NCBI RefSeq assembly: GCF_038025025.1
Contig: NW_027117343.1
Coordinates: 1,116,001-1,180,000 of the forward strand
Reading direction: 5' to 3'
Source: Phyllosticta citribraziliensis
Lineage: Eukaryota
Length of the DNA: 64,000 bases
Shown: positions 49,814 through 64,000 of the stretch, piece by piece
How the letters are laid out: every line of letters begins with the position of its first letter
Position numbering within the stretch: the stretch's first letter is position 1
The notes under the pieces: model-generated
What the model was told of the DNA's origin: nothing
Database searches by the model: none
Seen by the model: the letters and a program-made list of their open reading frames with translations, nothing else
Translations under genes and position numbers: made by a program

Positions 49814-50179
49814 GCCAGGCACTCTCCGTTCTCGTTGGATTTTCCCAGGAGTTCTTCCTTGTTCTTCCTCATCAAACATGTTCCAATAATCCTGTTCTGC
49901 TGAAATGCATACAACATCCTTTAACAAATCATGTCATGCATCTGCTGCGGTGCGTTCTGGTCTGTCGCTGTTCCATCTCCTCGACCTCTTTGCTTTTGGT
50001 CCTCTTTATAAAACGAAATCATCTTCAAGGGCTCCTTCCTATGTAATCGTCGCTTTGTAGCATCGGGAGTGTGAGAATTAGCTAGGTCAATCAAGGGGCT
50101 AGGCTAGGGTAGGGTAGGCGCAGGCTGTTTTCTTCGACGATGGCCAATATATTTAAACTCGATTGTCTCACCCTCGTGT

Positions 50180-50501
50180 CTTATTTACTATCTATAGTGG
50201 AATTAGTATTTATAGGGTTAATATTTACTTAAATAAAGAGTATATTATTATAGAGTAAGTTAATTTTATTAAGTAATATAAGTAATTACGGCGTATATAT
50301 ACTAGTAAGCTTATATTATATAGCTATCTACTTTATTATAGTAGCTAGTAGAGTAAGTCTTATAGACTTCTATTTATTTATTTATTTATTTAGTTTAATA
50401 TCCCTCTTAATTCTAAGACTATAAGAGATAAGGATAGCTATCCTAGTAGTTCTATATAGCTTATATATTATATATCCTATTAGGTTATAACTATATTAGG
50501 A

Positions 50502-50533
<32 letters not shown>

Positions 50534-51294
50534 AGTATGGTACTACTAGCCGGCACGGTTTTTACAGCTTTTAAGGGTTACTTTTAGCGATTATTATTCT
50601 TATTCTTAGCTATAGTTTTAGCTTAGATATAAGTAGAAGGTTAGGCTAGTAAGAAAATAAGACTATAGGTAGCTCTAGAATACTAGGAAGATATAGTTCT
50701 ATATAGTTTAGTAGTAATAATAATAGCTAATAAAAGTATAGGTAAACTTAGCATCTTAGATAGTAATAGGAGGTTTTATATTATTAGTATTTTTAGTAGT
50801 AGATTAGCTAGTTATATACCTCCTTTTATAGCTACTTATTAAGAGGTACTACTTATATAAATAAAGTCTTTTATACTTAGTTAAACTATTATCTAAAAAA
50901 TACTTAGTTATTTATTTATTTATACTTATTATTTATACCTAAATTATATACTACTTAGATAATAAAGTAATAGCTAGATAGTAGCTTATTTTAGTTAGTT
51001 TAGTAGTTATTTTATTCCTATCCTATAGAGCCTACTTATTTACTACTAGTTACTATCTCTTATACCTCTTCTAGCGCTAGTATTTTAGCTAGCTAAGTAA
51101 GTATATTAGTAAGTAGCTAGTCCTACCTATACTAGTCCTTCTTATTATATACTATAGCGCGCGCAGTTTATATTTTATAGTATTTAGTACTTAGTATTTA
51201 CTACTTATATATATACTAGCTGTTTCTAGCTAGCTAGAGAGTAGATAGTTATTCTATATAGGCTATATAATAACTACTCTTACTCCTTACCTAT
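50180..51294. mobile_element. Heavily RIP-degraded repeat of unidentified family; host of the LTR insertion
   Basis: Abrupt switch to TpA-saturated AT-rich DNA; contains (TA)n at about 50502-50528; no recognisable protein motif. Confidence 0.5.
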
Positions 51295-51717
51295 TATTAT
51301 AATAGGCGTACACGCGCCTACGTGAGTACTAGGGCCAGTATAGACAAACCCGGCGTTATATAGTTATAAGAAGTACAAGCCTCACCTTAGGTAGTAGCCC
51401 GCCGCAGCTTAGGCTAAAACCTGCAGGCTAGTACTAGCCACTACAGCCTGGCACCAGCCACTACAGCTCTAGGCAGATACTATGTAATAGCCCATTAACA
51501 CCTTACCTTTATAACTTACCTAATAATAACTAAGGACCCTTATATAAAGGATAAGAGGTAGAATAGTATAAAGGAAGGACTAGGAAATATATAAGTAGTA
51601 AGTATCTTTTATATTTTATTCTTTTAACTTATTAGATTTAATTAAGATATATATATATTTTCTAGTAGTTCACCTTTAGCCCTTACCTGTATAATAAGAA
51701 ATCTATAAGTTATAATA
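51295..51717 (+). repeat. 5' LTR of copy 1
   Basis: Matches 59112-59534 apart from C>T/G>A changes; termini TA(TG)...TA(CA); internal ~20-bp tandem duplication near 51427-51468. Confidence 0.95.
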
Positions 51718-54700
51718 GATATAAAAGATTATTTTAAGTTTTAGCTCTATCCTACTTCTTTACCTATAAAGGTATTATAATATTTAACCTAAGTAATATT
51801 ATATATAGCTATAGTCTTATATAAGACTGCTTATTACTTTTCCCTAGTAAACCTAAGTTATCTTTATTAGGCGCATTAGTATTATCTAAGGACTAAGGAG
51901 CATTAAGTATATATTAACTATAGAAGTCTTTAGTTAAGGCTATAGGGTAGTATATAAATATTTAGGAGGTATCCTATCTATAACCTACTTAAGGGACATT
52001 CTAAGTAGAAGACTATAAAGATAGTATAGCTAAGAATAAAGCTAATATATCTAGTACTACTAAAGGTATTAGTACTAGTTAATCAACTTAATAAGATTCG
52101 CGTAAAGGGACTAAAGATTTATATAATACTAGATACTTATTAAATAATAATAAGAGAGGACCTACCCCTATTCTCCTATATAATTTCTACTTAGTCCTAG
52201 TAGTAGAGGTAAAAGAATATACCTAAGACCTAGGGTCAACTTATACAGTTTAAGCTCTAGTTATAGAGGCATTTATAAAGGTACCACGCTTAGATATTAA
52301 TTAATTTAAATCTAAGATTACATCCTTAAATAAGTCTTAAGTATAGCAGCAACTAAACTACATATAAAGGTAAAACTAGGCTCTTAAGTAAATACTCTTA
52401 AACTATACTAATAGACTTAGGGAAGTTCTAAGGGAAGGATATATTAGGCCCTCTTTATTAGCTTAGCACCTAAGACCTATCACCCTCTCTTAAGATCCTT
52501 CTACTAGTAGAGTTATAAGGACTCTTAGACCTCCTCCTAACTATATAAGGGAAACTACTACTAAAACCTCTACTTTATCTTTAAGTAGTAAGAAATACTA
52601 AAGTAGTAAGGTTCCTAATCCTCCTCTTCTTACTAATAGAGAAGACCCCTTATATAAATACTAGACCCTCCTTATATAAAATAAAATTAAATAAAACCAC
52701 AATTACTTTACTAAAGATATAGTAGAGGAGACTAAATAGAATATTATAGGTTATATTATTTCCTATATTAGTAGAGAAGTCTTATATCACCTAACTCCTT
52801 TCCTTACTTCTTATATAAAGGCCAATAAAGTCACTCTAGATAAGGATATCTTTAAATTCCTAGATAACCTCCTCTAGAGTCTATATAAATATAAGGATAT
52901 AAAGAAGTAGTTACGCTCTCTTATATACCACATCCCTATAGACCTTTAGAAGTTTTAATTAAACTTTATATAATTAGCCTTAGATATAGATCTTCCCTAG
53001 GAATAGTAAAAAGAGGACTTTTATAATATAATAGATCCTCTCCTTTAAACCTATATAGTTACTATAGAGTAAGATAGGAATATTAACTTTTATAAGTACC
53101 TCTAATAAGCCTACCCTATTACTTAAAGTCTTAGTAACTACTATTCTAACTATAGAAAACTAACGCTCACGTCGTATAAGGAATAAGTAAAGAAGAGATA
53201 ATAAGAATAAGTAAAGATAACTACCTTAGGTAGTATAAGTACTTTATCTTCTAGTTATACCTAGGCGCGATCTATATCTAGGGCTCCCTTATATAATATA
53301 ACCTATAAAGGTAAAGTAGAAGTCTATATAGAGATTAGACCGTATAATCACTATAGCCAGTTTAGCTATTTATAGAGACAATGCCTATAACCTAAGATAA
53401 AGGTAATAGAGTTAGTTAAAGAAGAAAGTACTAAAGATATCTATATAAATAAAGGAGATTAGTCTTTATTAGAAAATAATAAGACCTAGGTAAAGTCTCC
53501 TACTATAGGTCTAAACTTAGAGCAATACATATTAAGGGTTCTTATATAAATCTTAGTTACTTTATTAGAGGTGTACCCTTTACTATATAAACCTTAATTA
53601 TATCTAATAGCCACGCCTTAGAAATTCGTGCCCTAGCTAATACTAGTACTAGTAGTATAAGTTTTATTCACCCTAAGCTACTACTAACTCTCCAGTCTAT
53701 AGGTACTATAAAAAAGAGAATAATAGGTAAAGGGCTTAATATTACTAGGTTTAACCGACGCATAAATAAGAAAGTCAATTTTTACTTTTATCTTTAACTC
53801 TACTTCTAGGATTAAATAGTTTCTACTTATACTTTTATTTATAATATTAGCTATAATAACATAATTCTTAGGTAATAGTTTTTCGACCAGCACGATGTTC
53901 TTCTAGACTATAAATAATATAAACTAGTCTAGAGATAGCTACTAATTAACTAATCCTTTTAGCATCTTTTACGCCTACTAAAAATCTCTATATAAAGCAA
54001 TAAACTATAGAAAGAACATTAAGTAGATATAGACTATAGAGATAAAAACTTTAATAAATACCTTCTTCCCTTAGTATAGGTTATTAAGGGAATTAAATTT
54101 TAAACTCAAGATACTTTTAAGCTTTCTATCTATAAAATACAAGTTATACTAATAGAGATCTATACTATTAACCTCATACAAGTTTAAGCGGCTCTTAAAG
54201 ATAAGGAAACTAAGGAATTACTAGCTTCTAAGCTACTAGCTACTTATAAGGAATTTTAAGATATATTTTCTAAAATAAAGTCTAACAAGCTACTACTATA
54301 TCATATAGGAGTTAATCATAAAATATCTCTTATATATAATAGTCTACTAGAGCTTCCACCTAGCCCTCTCTATAGAATGTCTCTAGAACAGCTTAAGGCT
54401 ATAAAAGAGTATATCATTAAGAATATTTAGAAAGGCTTTATTACTAAAAGCTTTACTACCTACACTTCTCCTATTCTAGTAGTAAAAAAGCCTAGTAGGG
54501 GATAGAGATTTTATATAGACTACTAATAGCTTAATAAATAAACTACTAAGGATTTACACCCCCTCCCTCTTATTATAGAGTTACTTTAGTATATTAGAAA
54601 GGGCAAGATTTACACTAAGCTTAATATTTAATAAGCTTTCTACTACATCTATCTTACTAAGGATTCTGAAGATAAAACCACTTTCTATATAAGATACAGG

Positions 54701-57319
54701 TTATTTAAATACTATATCTTACCTTTTAGATTAAGTAATAGACTAGTAGCCTTTTAATATTTTATTAACCAGGTTCTCTTTAAGTATTTAGATAATTTTA
54801 TTGTAGCTTTTATAGATAATATGCTTATTATCTCTAAAAACCCTATAGAGCATAAGGAATAAGTAAAAAAAGTACTAGTAAGACTATAAAAGGCGGGACT
54901 ATAGGTAGATTTAAAGAAGAGCAAGTTTTTAGTTATTTATATAAAGTTTCTTAGATATATTATTTCTATAGAAGGCATTTAAATAGACCTAGATAAGGTA
55001 GAACCTATATATAACTAGCTAATACTTAAAACCCTTAAGGCTCTTTAATCCTTCCTAGGTTTCTATAATTTCTACTAATAATTTCTCCCTAACTATAGAT
55101 AAATTAGCTAGCTATTAGAGAAACTATACTCTAAGGTAAAATAGTAACAACTAGGACCCCTAGAAGAGGAGGCAATTTAATAACTTAAGAAGCTAATATA
55201 TAGTAACATACTTCTAGCTAACTATAACCCTACTCTTAACACTTATATAGAGACTAATATAAGTAATAGAGTTACTATAGGCGTTTTAATATAGCTCTAA
55301 CAACCTTTATATAATTAGAAACTAGTAGCGTTCTACTCTAAGGTAATAGCTAATATAGAACTTTATTATAGAATATCTAATAAAGAACTGCTAGCTATTA
55401 AGAATAGACTAGAAGAATAGAGACTAATACTTATTAGCCTTAAAAAACCTTTTCTCATAATAATAGACTATTAGGTATTAGAGTACTACTCTACTAAATA
55501 ACAACTTAATTAATAACAAGCTAGATAGTCTAAGTTTTTTATAGAGTTCTATATACAATTCTCCTATTAGCTAGGAAAGGAAAATATCATTACTAATTAC
55601 CTTACTTAAAAATAAGAAGACCTAAAGACTTAAAAAGAAAAAGTAAAGGCTACATAAGAGATGTGCCTTATCTTACTAGAGACTATTATCCCTCTTTTTA
55701 TTTTAGAATAAGAACTTCCTTCTCTAGTATTATTTTTAGATAAACTTCTCTATATAAACTAAGAAGATTCTAAATTAGAACTCTAGAGATAGAAGGCCCT
55801 CTTAAAAGACCTTAAATAAAGAAATAGTTAGGAACTAAAGGATAGTCTTTTATTATAATATAGCACCCTCTTTATACTAGATCACAATAACCTCCGCGCG
55901 AGAATACTTAATACTTTATATACTACCTATATAACTACCTATCCTAGTATTATAAAGATATAAAAACTCCTTAAGTAATATTACTACTAGCTAGCTATAA
56001 ATCGCACGATTAATATTTACAGGCAAGGATACTATATTTACTACTAAATAAAAGAGTTTTATAATAAAGACCTAGGCCTTCTATAACCCCTAGAGATTCC
56101 TACTCGACCCTAGTAATACTTAGCTATAGATTTTAAAGAGATGCCTAAAGACTAAAAAGGCTACAATATAATCCTAGTTATTATAGACTAGTTAAGTTAA
56201 AGAACCTTTAGCTTACCTTATATAAAGAAGATTAATACTAAAGGAGTCTCTAGACTCTTTTATAAATATATCTACTATATTTATAGAAACCCTAAGTCTA
56301 TCCTATCTAACTAAGGCCCTTAGTTCATCTCAGCATTTATAAATAAACTATATAAGCTAACTAGTATAGAGCAGCATTTTAACTCATCCTACTACTCTTA
56401 AACTAATAGTATTATAGAGATTATTAATTAGCATCTTATATAAAGATTAAGACCTTTTATCAATTACTTTTAGAATAATTAGTCTAATCTTCTACTATTA
56501 ATAGACCTCGCACAAGTAATACTTCCCTATAAAGCTACTAGACTTTTACCTTTTAAGATTAAGTTAGGATATTCCCCTTAAATACACTATAACTAGTAAT
56601 AAAGAATAGAGACCCCCTAGTAACTAGAAAAGATAGCTCATATAGTAGCATAAACACTATAAAAGAGAAGATAAGAAGCTTTTAAATTTATAAAGAATCT
56701 TATTCTTAAATCCTAAGAGTATATATACTAATAAGCTAATAAATACCGTCGCATGCCAGACTTTACAGTTAGAGATTACATCTATATTAAGAAAACTAGA
56801 TGGTCTACTAATTAGCTAAACCTTAAATTAGACTTCTCTAATACTAGACCTTTTAAAATTATAGGAATAGAAGGACCCTCCTACATCCTTAATCTTTCCT
56901 TATATATAAAGATAGTTAACCTTTTCCACGCTAATAGGCTATATAAGGCCGAAATAGAACAGCTTCCTAGTTAGGAATATACTAAACCTAAACCTAAGAT
57001 TATTTAAGACGAGCCTAAGTAGGAAGTAGACCATATTTAAGCTAGTTAAGTCTTATATAGGAAGCTTTAATACCAAGTTAAATAGACTAGATACAACTAA
57101 GATGACTAGTAGTATAATGTAAGTTCTTTTAGTAGCGTGCTATAGAAAATTAAAGAATTCTACTTATTACACCCTATTATAGCAGGACTACTAAAAAATC
57201 TAGAAAAATAGAAGGCTGCCTTCCTCTAAGAAGAACTATAGATTAAAATAGAAAGTAATAATAAAATAAGTCACTTAGGCCTATAGTAAATATTATAAAG
57301 ACATAGAAAGTAGACTAAT

Positions 57320-59112
57320 TAGTTTACTATCTACCCTTATATAAATACTATTAATCTTGACTTCTACTCTCTAGTCTCTCCTTTTTACTACTTATTCCCT
57401 ACTATCCTCTTCTTTAATTTCTACCCTTTACTTCTTTCCTTTTCCCTTCTTCTTATTATAATAGTTATTATATAAGACCGTCTCCTCTAGATCCTCTAGC
57501 TTATTAGGCAGGATATTCTACTTAGCTAAAGCCTAATTAGTTTAATCCTCTAACCTAGCTTAGTAGTGCAAGTTCTAGAACTCCTCTATATAAATTTTGT
57601 CTTTATGCCTCTTATAATGAGCAGGCAGCTTGGCACCCTTTAAGTCACTTATAGTGTAGTTAAGGTTGCCTATACCCTAAAGGCAGTTAGCGCAGCAGCC
57701 CTATAAGAAACTAGGCAGGTAGTAACAACTAATAAACGCGCGAGTGTTAATATTATTACGACACTTAGTATAGCTAATAGGGTTATTAATTCTAGTGTAC
57801 TAGATAAGAAAAGCATCATATAAGCTGGCTTAAGTTTTAACTAATAAGTAGTTAAATTGCCAAGTAGAAACTATAATGTGTGAGTGAGGCATGCTATTAT
57901 CTAAGGCCAAGATGCGCTTAGTATGCTCTTGTACTTTAGAACTACTAAGGCGCGCCTATATAGTTAGTTAGATAAGAATCCCTTATATTAGTAAGATAAA
58001 CTTACTTACGCGACACTCTCTATATTCTTATAAGGGATATAAAGTATTAACTTAAAGTCCTACTTAATAGGCACCTTATTAGAGCCAACTAGTAACACTA
58101 TAATATGAATCTTACTGTCGCTGCTGTCGTGTAAAGTAGCAGGCAGCAAGTACTTAGCTACTAGAACCTAATAAGCTGTAGGATTATAATAATAGTATAT
58201 ATAAGTAGGCTCTTTACCTTCTTCCTCTAAAATAGGCTGCGCGACAGTAAACTAGCAGTAATATAGTGTAATAGGCTGGTTAGTAGCAGGCTATATAGCT
58301 ATAGATGACAAACCTCATATAATAACTAATAATACTAATTAAGTAGAACCTAATACTATAGTATACTATAGGTAAAGTAATAAGCCTATAGCTGTTCCTA
58401 GCTAAATAAGTAAAGCCTAGCCTAACTAAGTCTTTATATAAGTATCCTCCTCTATAATTATATTAGTTAGCAAGACGGGATAATAAAGCAGTAAAACCTA
58501 GATATATAATACTACTTAATAGCCTAGATAATAATTAGTAATAGTTAGAGATAGAATTAAAGTTTACTTACCTTAGGACTCTATATAATAGTCCTTATAG
58601 ATACTGCCAGCTAAAATAGCCCTCTAAGCGAGCGGTAACTATAACAGATCGCGAATAATGCTGCATAATAATAACTTAATACTGTAACTCTTATATAATA
58701 GTAATAAGTCCTAATAGACCAGACTATAATAAGTAGTAGACGTATTAAGTATATAGTAGCTAGGAATGTCTGCTTTACTATTAGTAGGGTATAAATTATT
58801 TAAATTATTAGAACCTTTATGCGTAATAGTCAGTTTACTAGATTATAGCTAAATTAGACTAGGATAACAATGTACTTTAATAGGGAGCTTTAGACATAGC
58901 TAAGTAAGATAGCAACCTTCTATAGGTCGCGCGGTAAAAGAGATAGTAATAGAAAGAGATGGTATAGTAGTAGACCTAGACTAATAATTATACTACACAT
59001 ATAGAACACTTAAATTACTAAATCACTACTATTATACATTACAAGTCTGCGCCTATATAAGCGCCTATAGCTACTAATTCCTACAATTTTAGCTTCTCTT
59101 TAGGGGGGGCAT
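57320..59112 (-). pseudogene. RIP-mutated antisense, intron-containing ORF of copy 1 (DUF3716-like six-Cys domain)
   Basis: Introns GTAAGT..CTAAC..TAG at 58571-58524 and 58005-57956. KCR..F.SC..LP..GCCANCL is readable directly at about 57770-57680. The 3' end is approximate. Confidence 0.65.
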
Positions 59113-59534
59113 ATTATAATAGGCATATATATACCTATATAAGTACTAGGGCCAGCATAGATAAACCTAGTATTATATAGTTATAAGAAGCATAAGCCTC
59201 ACCTTAGATAGCAGCCCACTACAGCTTAGGCTAAAACCCGCAGGCTAGTACCAGCTACTACAGCCTAGTACTAGCTACTACAGCCTTAGGAAGATACTAT
59301 ATAACAGCCTATTAATACCTTACCTTTATAACTTACCTAATAATAACTAAGGACCCTTATATAAAGGATAAGAGGTAGAACAGTATAAAGGAAGGACTAG
59401 GAAATATATAGGTAGTAAGTATCTTTTATATTTTATTCTTTTAACTTATTAGATTTAATTAAGACACATACATATTCTCTAGCAGTTTACCTTTAGCCCT
59501 TACCTATATAATAAGAAATCTATAAGTCATAACA
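59112..59534 (+). repeat. 3' LTR of copy 1
   Basis: Follows the PPT and ends ...gtcataaca; 423 bp. Confidence 0.95.
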
Positions 59535-60502
59535 AACTATAACTCTTATTATTAAAGTTCTTCTAGACTAATTTATTTAGATCTAAACTATAGACTATAA
59601 TATTACTATATCCTTCTTTTAAGGAGTAGCCTTAAAGTCTAAAATATAAAAGAGATAATATAAACCTTAACTAAATTAAGTACTTTAGATTTACTAGAGG
59701 TATTAACTTTTCCTTCTCTTTTTTACTTTCTATTTTAGAAAGAACTAACTATACTATTTTCCCCTAATTAGGACTATTCTTTAGTCCTTATATAGCTCTT
59801 TATATCCTAATATTAATAACTAACTTTTATCTATTAGTTCTTTTAGAATAAACCTTTATTTTAATTTATAAGAAGGGATATCCTCCTTTTTCTCTTCTTT
59901 AAACCTAAATTACCCTTTACTTATAAGTTATACTTTTAGGTCTTATAATAGCTTTATATATAACTATTATAATAATAATTTATTAGGAAATATAGTAAGA
60001 TTCCTAAGAGCCTAATAGTATACCTAATAAGTTAGGTACTAAGGGTAATATAAGGGTTTACCCCTAGATAGGTACTACTATAAATAGTAGAATTTAATCT
60101 ATTATAATAGTCCTTACTATCTATAATACCTAAGCTAGTTTCTCTCTTAGCTAGTAGGAACTAGTACTAAATAAGTAAAGATTCCTTTCTTACTAAGAAA
60201 CTTCTACCTTAAATATCTTTATAAGTACTAGTACTATAGACTTAAGAGCTATACTATTTAATAGGGCTTAGCCTATAGTACTTATATATAATATTAGGGG
60301 ATAAATAATCTACTTATTATCTTTATACTTTAGTATCTAATCTTAGGTAAAGACCTTATTTTTATATAGTACTTCTAGTAGATTTAAAACTATAGTATTT
60401 TAACCTAATAAGTCTTATCCTCTTATAAGTAGTAAGAGACCTATTAATAGTATTATAGTACCTAGTAGAGTAAATTAATATAGACTACTAATAATTAATA
60501 GG
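59535..60502. mobile_element. RIP-degraded spacer between the two inverted copies, probably host-repeat sequence in inverted orientation
   Basis: TpA-saturated; ends in atagg, the reverse complement of the cctat that precedes copy 1. Confidence 0.5.
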
Positions 60503-63500
60503 TATTACAACTTGCAGATTTCTTATTATATAAGTAAGGGCTAAAGGTAAACTGCTAGAGAATGTATATATATCTTAATTAAATCTAATAAGTTAAAAGA
60601 ATAAAATATAAAAGATACTTACTACCTATATATTTTCTAGTCCTTCCTTTATACTATTCTACCTCTCATCCTTTATATAAGGGTCCTTAGTTATCATTAG
60701 GTGAGTTATAAAGGTAAGGTGTTAATAGGCTGTTGCGTGGTATCTGCCTAGGGCTGTAGTAGCTGGTGCCAGGCTATAGTAGCTAGTACCAGCCTGTAGG
60801 TTTTAGCCTAAGCTACAGTGGGCTGCTACCTAAGGTAAGGCTTATGCTTCTTATAACTATATAATGCTAGGTTTATTTATACTAGCCCTAGTACTTATAT
60901 AGGTATATATATGCCTATCATAATATGCCCCCCCTAAAGAGAAGCTAAAATCATAGGAATTGGCAGCTACAGGCGCTTATATAGGCGCAGACTCGTAATA
61001 TATAATAGTAGTAATTTGGCAATTTAAGTATTCTATATATATAGTATAATTATTAGTCTAGGTCTACTACTACACTATCTCTTTCTATTACTATCTCTTT
61101 TACCGCGCAACCTATAGAAGGTCGCCATCTTACTTAGCCATATTTAAAGCTCCCTATTAAAGTATGTTATTATCCCGGTCTAATTTAGCTATAATCTAGT
61201 AAACTAACTATTATATATAAAGGTTCTAATAATTTAAATAATTTGTACCCTACTAATAGTAAAGTAGATATTCCTAGCTGCTATATACTTAATACGTCTG
61301 CTACTTATTATAGTCTAGTCTATTAGGACTTATTACTATCATATAAGAGTTATAGTATTAAGTTATTATTATATAGCATTATTTATAATCTGTTATAGTC
61401 GCCGCTTACTTAGAGGGCTATTTTAGCTAGCAGTATCTATAAGGACTATTATATAGAGTCCTAAGATAAGTAAACTTTAATTCTATCTCTAATTATTACT
61501 AATTATTATCTAGGCTATTAAGTAGTATTATACATCTAGGTTTTACTACTTTATCATCCCATCTTACTAACCAATATAATTATAGAGGAGGACACTTATA
61601 TAAAGACTTAGTTAGGCTAGGCTTTACTTATTTAGCTAGAAATAGCTACAGGCTTGTTACTTTACCTATAGCATACTATAGTATTAGGTTCTACTTAATT
61701 AGTATTATTAGTTATCGCGCAAGGTTCGTCATCTATAGCTATATAGCCTGCTACTAACTAGCCTATTATGCTGCATTACTACTAGTTTACTGTTGCGCAG
61801 CCTATTTTAGAGGAAGAAGGTAAAGAGCCTACTTATATATACTATTATTATAATCCTGCAGCTTATTAGGTTCTAGTAGCTAAGTACTTGCTGCCTGCTA
61901 CTTTACATAATAGCAGTAACAGTGAGATTTATATTATAGCGTTGCTGGTTAGCTCTAATAAGGCGCCTATTAAGTAGGACTTTAAGTTAATACTTTATAT
62001 CCCTTATAAGAATATAGAGAGTGTCGTGTAAGTAAGTTTATCTTACTAATATAAGGGATTCTTATCTAACTAACTATATAGGCGCGCCTTAGTAGTTCTA
62101 AAGTATAAGAGTATACTGAGCGCATCTTGGCCTTAGGTAACAGCATGCCTTACTTATATATCATGGTTTCTACTTAGCAATTTAACTACTTATTAGTTAA
62201 AACTTAAGCCAGCTTATATAATGCTTTTCTTATCTAGTACACTGAAATTAATAACCCTATTAGCTATACTAAGTATTATGATAATACTAATACTCGCGTA
62301 TTTATTAGTTATTACTACCTACCTGGTTTCTTATAGGGCCACTATACTAACTGCCTTTAGGGTATAGGCAACCTTAACTACACTATAAGTGACTTGAAAG
62401 GTGCCAAGCCGCCTGCTTATTATAAGAGGCATAAAGATGAAATTTATATAGAGGAGTTCTAGAACTTATACTACTAAGCTAGGTTAGAGGATTAAACTAA
62501 TTAGGCTTTAGCTAAGTAGGACATCCTGCCTAATAAGCTAAAGGATCTAGAGGAGACGGTCTTATATAATAACTATTATAATAAGAAGAAGGGAAAAGGA
62601 AAGAAGTAAAGGGTAGAAATTAAAGAAGAGGATAGTAGAGAATAAGTAGTAAAAAGGAGAGACTAGAGAGTAGAAGTTAAGATTAATAGTATTTATATAA
62701 GAGTAGATAGTAAACTAATTAGTCTACTTTCTATATCTTTATAATATTTACTATAGGCCTAAGTAACTTGTTTTATTATTACTTTCTATTTTAATCTATA
62801 GTTCTTCTTAGAGGAAGGCAGCCTTCTATTTTTCTAGATTTTTTAGTAGTCCTACTATAACAGGGTATAATGAGTAGAATTCTTTAATTTTCTATAGTGT
62901 ACTACTAAAAGAACTTGTATTATACTACTAGTCATCTTAGTTATATCTAGTCTATTTAACTTAGTATTAAAGCTTCCTATATAAGACTTAACTAGCTTAA
63001 ATATAGTCTACTTCCTACTTAGGCTTATCTTAAATAATCTTAGGTTTAGGTTTAGTATATTCCTAACTAGGAAGCTGTTCCATTTTGGCCTTATATAGCC
63101 TGTTAGTATAGAAAAGGTTAACTATCTTTATATATAAGGGAAGATTAAGGATGTAGGAGGGTCCTTCTATTCCTATAATCTTAAAAGGTCTAGTATTAGG
63201 GAAGTCTAATTTAAGGTTTAGCTAATTAGTAGACCATCTAGTTTTCTTAATATAGATATAATCTCTAACTATAAAGTCTAGCGCGTGACAGTATTTATTA
63301 GCTTATTAGTATATATACTCTTAGGATTTAAGAATAAGATTCTTTATAAATTTAAAAGCTTCTTATCTTCTCTTTTATAGCATTTATACTACTATATAAG
63401 CCATCTTTTCTAGTTACTAGGGGGTCTCTATTCTTTATTACTAGTTATAGTATATTTAAGGGGAATATCCTAACTTAATCTTAAAAGGTAAAAGTCTAGT

Positions 63501-64000
63501 AGCTTTATAGGGAAGTATTACTTGTGCGAGGTCTATTAATAGTAGAAGATCAGACTAATTATTTTAAAAGTAATTAATAAAAGGTCTTAATCTTTATATA
63601 AGATGCTAATTAATAATCTCCATAATACTATTAGTTTAAGAGTAGTAGGATGAGTTAAAATACTACTCTATACTAGTTAGCTTATATAGTTTATTTATAA
63701 ATGCTAAGATGAACTAAGGGCCTTAGTTAGATAGGATAGACTTAGGGTTTCTATAAATATAGTAGATATATTTATAAAAGAGTCTAGAGACTCCTTCAGC
63801 ATTAATCTTCTTTATATAAGGCAAGCTAAAGGTTCTTCAACTTAACTAGTCTATAATAACTAGAATTGTATTATAGCCTTTTTAGTCTTTAGGCATCTCT
63901 TTAAAATCTATAGCTAAGTGTTGCCAGGGTTAAGTAGGAATCTCTAGGGGTTATAGAAGGCCTAGGTCTTTATTATAAAACTCTTTTATTTAGTAATAAA
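60503..64000 (-). mobile_element. Second, inverted copy of the same chromovirus (3' LTR, extra-ORF region, chromodomain and part of integrase; runs off the window)
   Basis: Reverse complement of copy 1, with position sum 120037 at every landmark checked; 3' LTR 60503-60925, PPT complement ccccccct at 60928-60935. Confidence 0.95.
60925..62720 (+). pseudogene. RIP-mutated antisense, intron-containing ORF of copy 2 (DUF3716-like six-Cys domain)
   Basis: ATG CCC CCC at 60925; introns 61466-61513 and 62032-62081; Cys domain 62265-62381; KKKGKGKK near 62584-62606. The 3' end is approximate. Confidence 0.65.

Follow-up and report, generated by a model that had tools for sequence, protein, structure and literature searches.

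An AT-rich Ty3/gypsy retrotransposon of Phyllosticta citribraziliensis most likely carries the relic of a multi-intron antisense gene

Does an LTR (long terminal repeat) retrotransposon of the fungus Phyllosticta citribraziliensis carry a spliced gene on the strand opposite to its own gag-pol? The question is raised by a 64,000-nt stretch of the genome (hereafter the window) that ends in two copies of one Ty3/gypsy element. In copy 1, the initial annotation had proposed two spliceosomal introns on the minus strand, antisense to the element: a 48-nt stretch (58571-58524) and a 50-nt stretch (58005-57956). We analyzed the sequence between pol and the 3′ LTR with a codon model suited to heavily mutated DNA and searched for relatives of the element. 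The coding-like signal in this region changes its reading frame three times, and the most likely explanation is an antisense accessory gene with several introns, of which a dead relic is left. The 50-nt stretch coincides with one of the three changes.

Frame changes in the proposed antisense gene

The coding-like signal of copy 1 extends from 58900 to 57430 and thus lies between the end of pol (~57226) and the beginning of the 3′ LTR (~59000), which is the position of the antisense open reading frames (ORFs) termed aORF-3R. Its segments are listed below in the order in which they would be read on the minus strand, together with the corresponding last segment of copy 2 and the pol relic that served as an internal control:

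58572..58900, minus strand: coding-like sequence at the upstream end; the codon score prefers frame 1 (58900-58667: +5.0; other frames -8.4 and -5.7; weakly so as far as 58572), while judged by stops frame 0 is open from the ATG at 58666
58300..58523, minus strand: coding-like segment in frame 0 (score +9.0; others -9.2 and -7.4), with the fewest stops of the three frames
58006..58299, minus strand: coding-like segment in frame 1 (QPILEEEGKEP...ESVA; score +6.4; others -7.7 and -11.6), five stops in 98 codons
57430..57955, minus strand: last coding segment of copy 1 in frame 0 (score +22.2; others -9.0 and -25.7), carrying a Cys motif (C-x11-C-x9-CC-x-NC) and ending in KKKGKGKK ahead of the stop; nine stops in 175 codons
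62082..62607, plus strand: last coding segment of copy 2, in which Cys codons have become codons for Tyr or His
54269..57226, plus strand: pol relic of copy 1 (reverse transcriptase, RNase H, integrase and C-terminal part), in one frame throughout, with many stops caused by repeat-induced point mutation (RIP)

RIP produces transitions only, and the purine/pyrimidine periodicity of codons therefore outlasts it. We thus scored frames with a purine/pyrimidine codon model that was trained on nine long host ORFs and checked on the RIPped pol relic, where it had to find the true frame among the three sense frames. The correct frame was recovered in 35 of 64 windows of 30 codons, 38 of 61 windows of 75 codons, 42 of 59 windows of 100 codons and 47 of 54 windows of 175 codons.

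Applied to the antisense region, the model revealed three frame changes, with one-change gains of 18.8, 14.6 and 14.8 bits in three overlapping windows. Single-frame controls yielded a mean gain of 6.5 and a maximum of 12.7 in the RIPped pol (n = 40) and a 95th percentile of 11.8 in host ORFs, where a gain of at least 14 occurred in 1% of the windows (n = 205). The first change (frame 1 to 0) had its best plateau at 58590-58500, over the 48-nt stretch, with values 3-5 bits lower up to 58710; the middle change (frame 0 to 1) mapped to ~58300-58225, and the third (frame 1 to 0) to a plateau at 58030-57925. Stop counts concurred in three of the four segments, namely the last three (58523-58300, 58299-58006 and 57955-57430). 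Stop density is a weak discriminator, however, with 8.9 stops per 100 codons in the true pol frame versus 11-12 in the others. Beside the Cys frame, frame 1 of 57700-57955 (minus) was about equally stop-poor (0-3 stops per 40 codons), which shows how misleading a count of stops is by itself in RIPped DNA.

Since no indel separates the two copies over 3515 nt and pol has suffered no frameshift, three changes within 1.5 kb look structural, like exon boundaries, and decay by indels appears unlikely. The relic, probably antisense as the initial annotation had it, lies between pol and the 3′ LTR, and its coding-like signal has three frame changes next to a pol that keeps one frame over 986 codons. 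The antisense region is present in both window copies, and parts of it are covered by short contigs of further copies. Both the Cys motif and every consensus splice signal lie on the minus strand, while the periodicity test itself is strand-blind. In copy 1, the Cys frame matched DUF3716 (domain of unknown function; PF12511) with E = 0.025 and 14.9 bits against a Pfam gathering cut-off of 22. RIP damage may explain a score below this threshold, so that we speak of the likeness to DUF3716 as a resemblance and treat the capture of a DUF3716 gene from the host as conjecture.

The candidate introns

The positions and signals of both proposed introns were found in copy 1 as described, and the counterpart of the 50-nt stretch in copy 2 proved to be identical letter for letter:

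57956..58005, minus strand: proposed 50-nt intron (GTAAGT...CTAACTAAC...TATAG|gcg) on the plateau of the third frame change, judged probably real
62032..62081, plus strand: its counterpart in copy 2, identical to copy 1
58524..58571, minus strand: proposed 48-nt intron (aag|GTAAGT...CTAAC...CTAAT...CTAG in copy 1), judged possible
61466..61513, plus strand: its counterpart in copy 2, with damaged signals (donor ATAAGT; CTAAC changed to CTAAT)

To compare these signals with those of the host, we turned to the host part of the window, which contained 19 intron pattern matches, 11 of them with open frames on both sides. These 11 presumed host introns measured 47-99 nt and combined GTAAGT, GTACGT or GTGAGT donors with CTAAC or CTGAC branch motifs. 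A GT donor, CTRAY branch, YAG acceptor and a length within the host range are found in the 50-nt stretch, and in copy 1 only also in the 48-nt stretch; the earlier statement that size and signals agree with host introns was therefore correct.

The plateau of the third frame change encloses the 50-nt stretch, whose length (2 modulo 3) belongs to the class which that change needs. Removal of the stretch joins the frame reading QPILEEEGKEP...KYLLPATL...ESVA to the frame of the Cys motif, exactly as the initial annotation had stated. A model consisting of frame 1, removal of the 50 nt and frame 0 scored 17.2, versus -2.85 and 1.56 for the unbroken frames. Further information came from a third copy, represented by short contigs from a sequencing run with the same species label. 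An in-frame TAA (58008-58006) at the extreme 3′ end of the upstream exon reads CAA in this copy, and the branch motif CTAAC reads CTGAC, and both differences favour an intron. We conclude that the 50-nt stretch is probably a genuine intron.

The case of the 48-nt stretch is less clear. The G of its donor is an A in copy 2 as well as in the third copy and is thus missing in two of three copies. The direction of RIP indicates that the donor G and the branch C of copy 1 are ancestral, and the other copies would hence display loss of the signals, not creation. Within the 142 codons 58666-58240, the stretch holds two of the five stops of frame 0. With frame 0 open from the ATG at 58666, this distribution fits an in-phase intron and a frame change further upstream. 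As to whether removal of the 48 nt joins two coding frames, the stop counts are neutral. Use of a second GT, 4 nt on, would give a 44-nt intron of the right length class, but from a poor donor. An intron at 58571-58524 is possible, and we stop slightly short of favouring it.

Neither of the two stretches explains the middle frame change, and the gene needs at least one further intron or frame change near 58300-58225. The segment 58523-58006, which had been drawn as one uninterrupted second exon, can therefore not be maintained in this form: the frame changes within it, at a place devoid of a consensus intron. When the less-mutated letter of the two copies was taken at each site, a consensus donor GTACGT also appeared at 58875 (minus), followed on its 3′ side by branch-like CTAAT motifs and YAG acceptors at 98-106 nt (58875-58770). 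The relic may have had another intron at this place, close to its 5′ end.

The element and its relatives

By block, the GC content is 50-62% at positions 1-50000, the host part of the window, versus 27-32% at 50001-64000. This AT-rich block (50-64 kb) contains two mutually inverted copies of one LTR retrotransposon; copy 1 is oriented along the plus strand, and copy 2 is inverted and cut by the end of the window. The boundaries of the repeats were assigned as follows:

51176..51846 (approximate), plus strand: 5′ LTR of copy 1, from a gapped local alignment with 59000-59673; ungapped core 51295-51731
59000..59673 (approximate), plus strand: 3′ LTR of copy 1, from the gapped alignment; ungapped core 59112-59551
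60384..60999 (approximate), minus strand: 3′ LTR of copy 2, from ungapped and gapped alignment; the inverted element leaves the window

The two LTR cores of copy 1 (51295-51731 and 59112-59551) matched at 87-88% without gaps, as expected for long terminal direct repeats. An AT-rich sequence of ~0.7-0.9 kb separates the facing LTRs of the inverted copies (59674-60383). In a contig of run X2, 59187 is followed directly by 59300, with 112 nt of the LTR skipped; this contig may stem from another copy of the element with a shorter LTR.

Comparison of the two copies over an ungapped alignment of 3515 nt revealed 243 differences and no indels. As many as 236 of the differences were transitions, mostly at CpA/TpG, and this is the signature of RIP. 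Pfam searches of copy 1 detected RVT_1 (E = 2e-13), RT_RNaseH_2 and RT_RNaseH in a single plus-strand frame, while the other five frames were empty. Read with X at its stops, the pol frame matched 142 intact Ty3/gypsy polyproteins at E ≤ 1e-5; the query was covered to 95-100% in most of the 120 polyproteins listed, and the best match was 38% identical. The matching polyproteins carry RVT_1, RNase H and rve, some of them together with a chromodomain; pol of the element accordingly has the order reverse transcriptase, RNase H, integrase. These matches show that pol keeps to one frame for 986 codons and ends near 57226. The element is thus a RIP-inactivated Ty3/gypsy LTR retrotransposon.

An alignment of 18 intact polyproteins was used to collect 102 related loci, comprising 80 metagenome loci, 11 loci in prokaryote-labelled genomes and 11 loci on viral contigs. 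An intact relative of the element was not found in the metagenome search. In tblastn searches of related loci, the three antisense frames of both copies produced nothing better than E = 0.19, and the best hit of the Cys exon alone (E = 0.009) lay within pol of another element. Among the 35 loci with at least 600 nt past pol, nine lacked an antisense ORF of at least 70 residues; the 90 such ORFs found did not match DUF3716. Patterns derived from the Cys motif retrieved nothing comparable in the six frames of the 102 loci, and neither the Cys exon nor an alignment of both copies found a match in word-based protein searches. A phmmer search of 1.84 billion representatives gave six matches, and the four that were examined were all repeat proteins with 'G.ANCL..LGDL'-type repeats, which we judged to be spurious.

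Full-length gypsy elements related to this family occur in records titled as bacterial or archaeal metagenome-assembled genomes (loci L081 and L082; L083-L091). Two such copies reside within a 6.65-Mb 'chromosome' titled as an actinobacterial metagenome-assembled genome, at a local GC content of 38-41%, and one protein matching pol (P0096) is likewise named archaeal. These prokaryote-labelled records look like fungal DNA that was binned or labelled as prokaryotic. Five metagenome relatives on long contigs (L005, L008, L012, L036 and L038) have 32-38% GC on the 3′ side of pol and no long ORFs in that part, and could represent elements of other fungi that were damaged by RIP.

Alternative readings and known antisense genes

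Our interpretation is that each copy holds the relic of a multi-exon accessory gene, antisense between pol and the 3′ LTR, with a Cys-rich DUF3716-like end and with introns that were kept owing to their antisense orientation. We give this reading a modest preference. Layout, RIP, motifs and frame changes are observations; the strand assignment of the coding signal, its splicing, its promoter and its function are inferred. While the element was active, a promoter belonging to the antisense gene would have driven its transcription in the direction of pol, and the host spliceosome would have spliced the resulting transcript. In the genomic RNA the same introns would lie in antisense orientation and could not be removed, so that they would be recopied at every round of retrotransposition. 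The initial annotation was right that introns in antisense orientation are not removed from the genomic RNA; this is established knowledge from reporters, TART and human T-cell leukaemia virus (HTLV) and not a discovery made at this locus.

Several observations weigh against the reading as a spliced antisense gene. No homologue of the antisense region was found in the 102 related loci or by the protein searches, and the match to DUF3716, below the gathering score in copy 1, was missing in copy 2. At the middle change (~58300-58225), only poor donors and no consensus intron were found. Of the two proposed spliceosomal introns, the 50-nt stretch, on a frame-change plateau and of the right length class, is probably real, and the 48-nt stretch is in doubt: its length is a multiple of three and cannot yield the frame change placed at 58590-58500, and its donor G is the one lost in two of three copies. 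Upstream of it, the codon score has a weak preference for frame 1, whereas frame 0 is preferred by stop counts. The third copy also contains three extra letters inside the 48-nt stretch, an insertion that would be compatible with coding sequence as well. Conservation of the signals among copies is divided, the 50-nt stretch being intact in copy 2 and bearing a CTGAC branch in the third copy, the 48-nt donor being damaged in two. For each contig, moreover, part of the differences is listed (seven of nine in the contig over the 50-nt stretch), so that signal letters that seem unchanged are not proven to be so. Finally, the T of both proposed donors precedes an A and could be a former C in either.

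A different reading is that the introns are chance products of RIP and that the real gene, if any, was a small single-exon ORF in the Cys frame, starting at the ATG 57892-57890. In TA-rich DNA, GTAAGT, CTAAC and TAG arise abundantly through C-to-T and G-to-A changes, and a perfect GTAAGT at 58009-58004 was indeed created by RIP, as the less-mutated state is GCAAGT (the third copy has a C at 58008, minus). When we defined a strict motif (GTAAGT...CTRAY...YAG) and simulated the 14-kb block with Markov chains of orders 1 to 5, the five strict matches observed, at three distinct places, equalled the chance expectation of 3.7-5.3; GTAAGT by itself was rarer in the block than simulated (13 observed versus 17-20). 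The ATG of the Cys frame lies 21 codons past the proposed acceptor, the Cys phase is closed upstream of 57955, and the DUF3716 match is weak. On the other hand, a single-exon ORF leaves unexplained the periodicity and the low stop counts over ~950 nt upstream of the Cys exon, which alternate between frames with gains above nearly all controls, and the 50-nt stretch coincides with a change point and belongs to the right length class. All five strict matches, moreover, cluster in the antisense gene and on the strand of that gene, against an expectation of ~0.18-0.26 per 1.37 kb. A Poisson estimate by hand gives ~0.02-0.03 for two or more matches, for a region that was chosen after the fact. Taken together, an origin of the introns by chance is unlikely, although it deserves serious consideration. 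Short contigs from two runs with the same species label showed no joint over either stretch and are uninformative either way.

The frame changes could likewise be ordinary indels that both copies received from their common ancestor, with GT-AG motifs falling near two of them by coincidence. The middle change without a consensus intron, the inability of the 48-nt stretch to shift the frame and the 3-letter indel in one other copy are in line with this idea. It is difficult to reconcile with pol of the same copy, which keeps one frame over 986 codons, and with the lack of any indel between the two copies over 3515 nt. In addition, the coincidence of a strict motif of the right class with the change point at the 50-nt stretch was estimated at ~0.005-0.015 from the simulated motif rates. 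We thus regard indels as an improbable explanation. A still smaller chance attaches to an extra ORF on the sense strand 3′ of pol, env-like or other, of which the minus-strand reading would be an artefact. The codon model is strand-symmetric, and the antisense strand of gag-pol scores equal to its sense strand; the assignment of the signal to the minus strand is hence drawn from the Cys motif and the GT-AG signals. Open stretches also occur in plus-strand frames. However, the plus strand of this stretch matched no Pfam family, the consensus splice signals are all on the minus strand, and the Cys motif, with its Cys-to-Tyr RIP changes between copies, reads on the minus strand as well. An antisense gene with introns therefore remains the reading that we prefer.

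Extra antisense genes in LTR retrotransposons have precedents. In Botrytis cinerea, Boty-like (BcGypsy1) Ty3/gypsy elements possess an additional antisense gene, brtn (PMC7264820, PMC8365987, PMC4227169, PMC5987419). Judged by layout only, as described in the parts of these papers that bear on it, the arrangement agrees with ours: both are Ty3/gypsy elements of fungi whose additional gene follows pol, precedes the 3′ LTR and runs opposite to gag-pol, the orientation being the probable one for the present relic. Unlike the brtn setting, the host of the present relic has a GC content of 50-62%. In plants, antisense ORFs between pol and the 3′ LTR (aORF-3R) are known from Grande (gene23), RIRE2, Retand and PvRetro13, and the Grande gene has its own promoter and a proposed regulatory role (PMC7264820). 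The position and the probable orientation of our relic equal those of the plant ORFs as summarized in that review. The plant ORFs are described as single ORFs; introns go unmentioned in the review and in a 2025 paper on Retand, and, unlike the relic, the ORFs portrayed there lack a Cys-rich DUF3716-like motif.

Spliced antisense transcription from retroelements has been described as well. Deltaretroviruses express spliced antisense genes such as HBZ of HTLV-1, APH-2/3/4, and AS1/AS2 of bovine leukaemia virus (PMC10186651), and the non-LTR element TART has antisense introns and spliced antisense RNAs without a long ORF (PMC1636488). In both cases, as far as the consulted portions of these sources describe them, the introns run opposite to the genomic RNA, are removed by splicing of an antisense transcript and persist through reverse transcription, and the same would apply to the proposed relic. 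TART and the deltaretroviruses are supported by RNA and belong to animal hosts, whereas the present fungal relic is known from its sequence alone. Retrotransposition reporters with antisense introns are, according to the literature sampled, in routine use. A DUF3716 precedent is provided by REP9, a Class II (IS3EU-type) transposon of Zymoseptoria tritici with two DUF3716 genes, of which REP9-1 has at least two exons (PMC8232023). Going by the portion of that paper on REP9, the relic would share with it a DUF3716-type gene as passenger of a fungal mobile element, the likeness of our relic to DUF3716 being a resemblance. Unlike the present element, REP9 is a DNA transposon, so that survival of introns poses no problem there. 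The terms 'DUF3716' and 'retrotransposon' did not occur together in any paper covered by our literature search.

The general arrangement is thus already known, and the present relic is an ordinary addition to it. Its main value is that of one more data point, from a relic that is dead and heavily mutated and whose splicing we infer; the case further illustrates that purine/pyrimidine coding allows frame changes to be recognized in spite of RIP damage. As a tentative proposal, which we find plausible without favouring it, the relic could be a dead member, with at least three introns, of a fungal LTR retrotransposon lineage that owns a multi-intron antisense gene for a Cys-rich DUF3716-type protein and inherits the introns through reverse transcription. 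If the introns are real, the relic would represent a natural case of the principle behind antisense-intron reporters, in which a spliced gene is carried in a retroelement and its introns are kept. It would then also add to hints, such as REP9 in Zymoseptoria, of DUF3716 proteins travelling as passengers with mobile elements of fungi. Should the proposal hold true, DUF3716, a domain of unknown function, would be an accessory or regulatory protein encoded by such elements.

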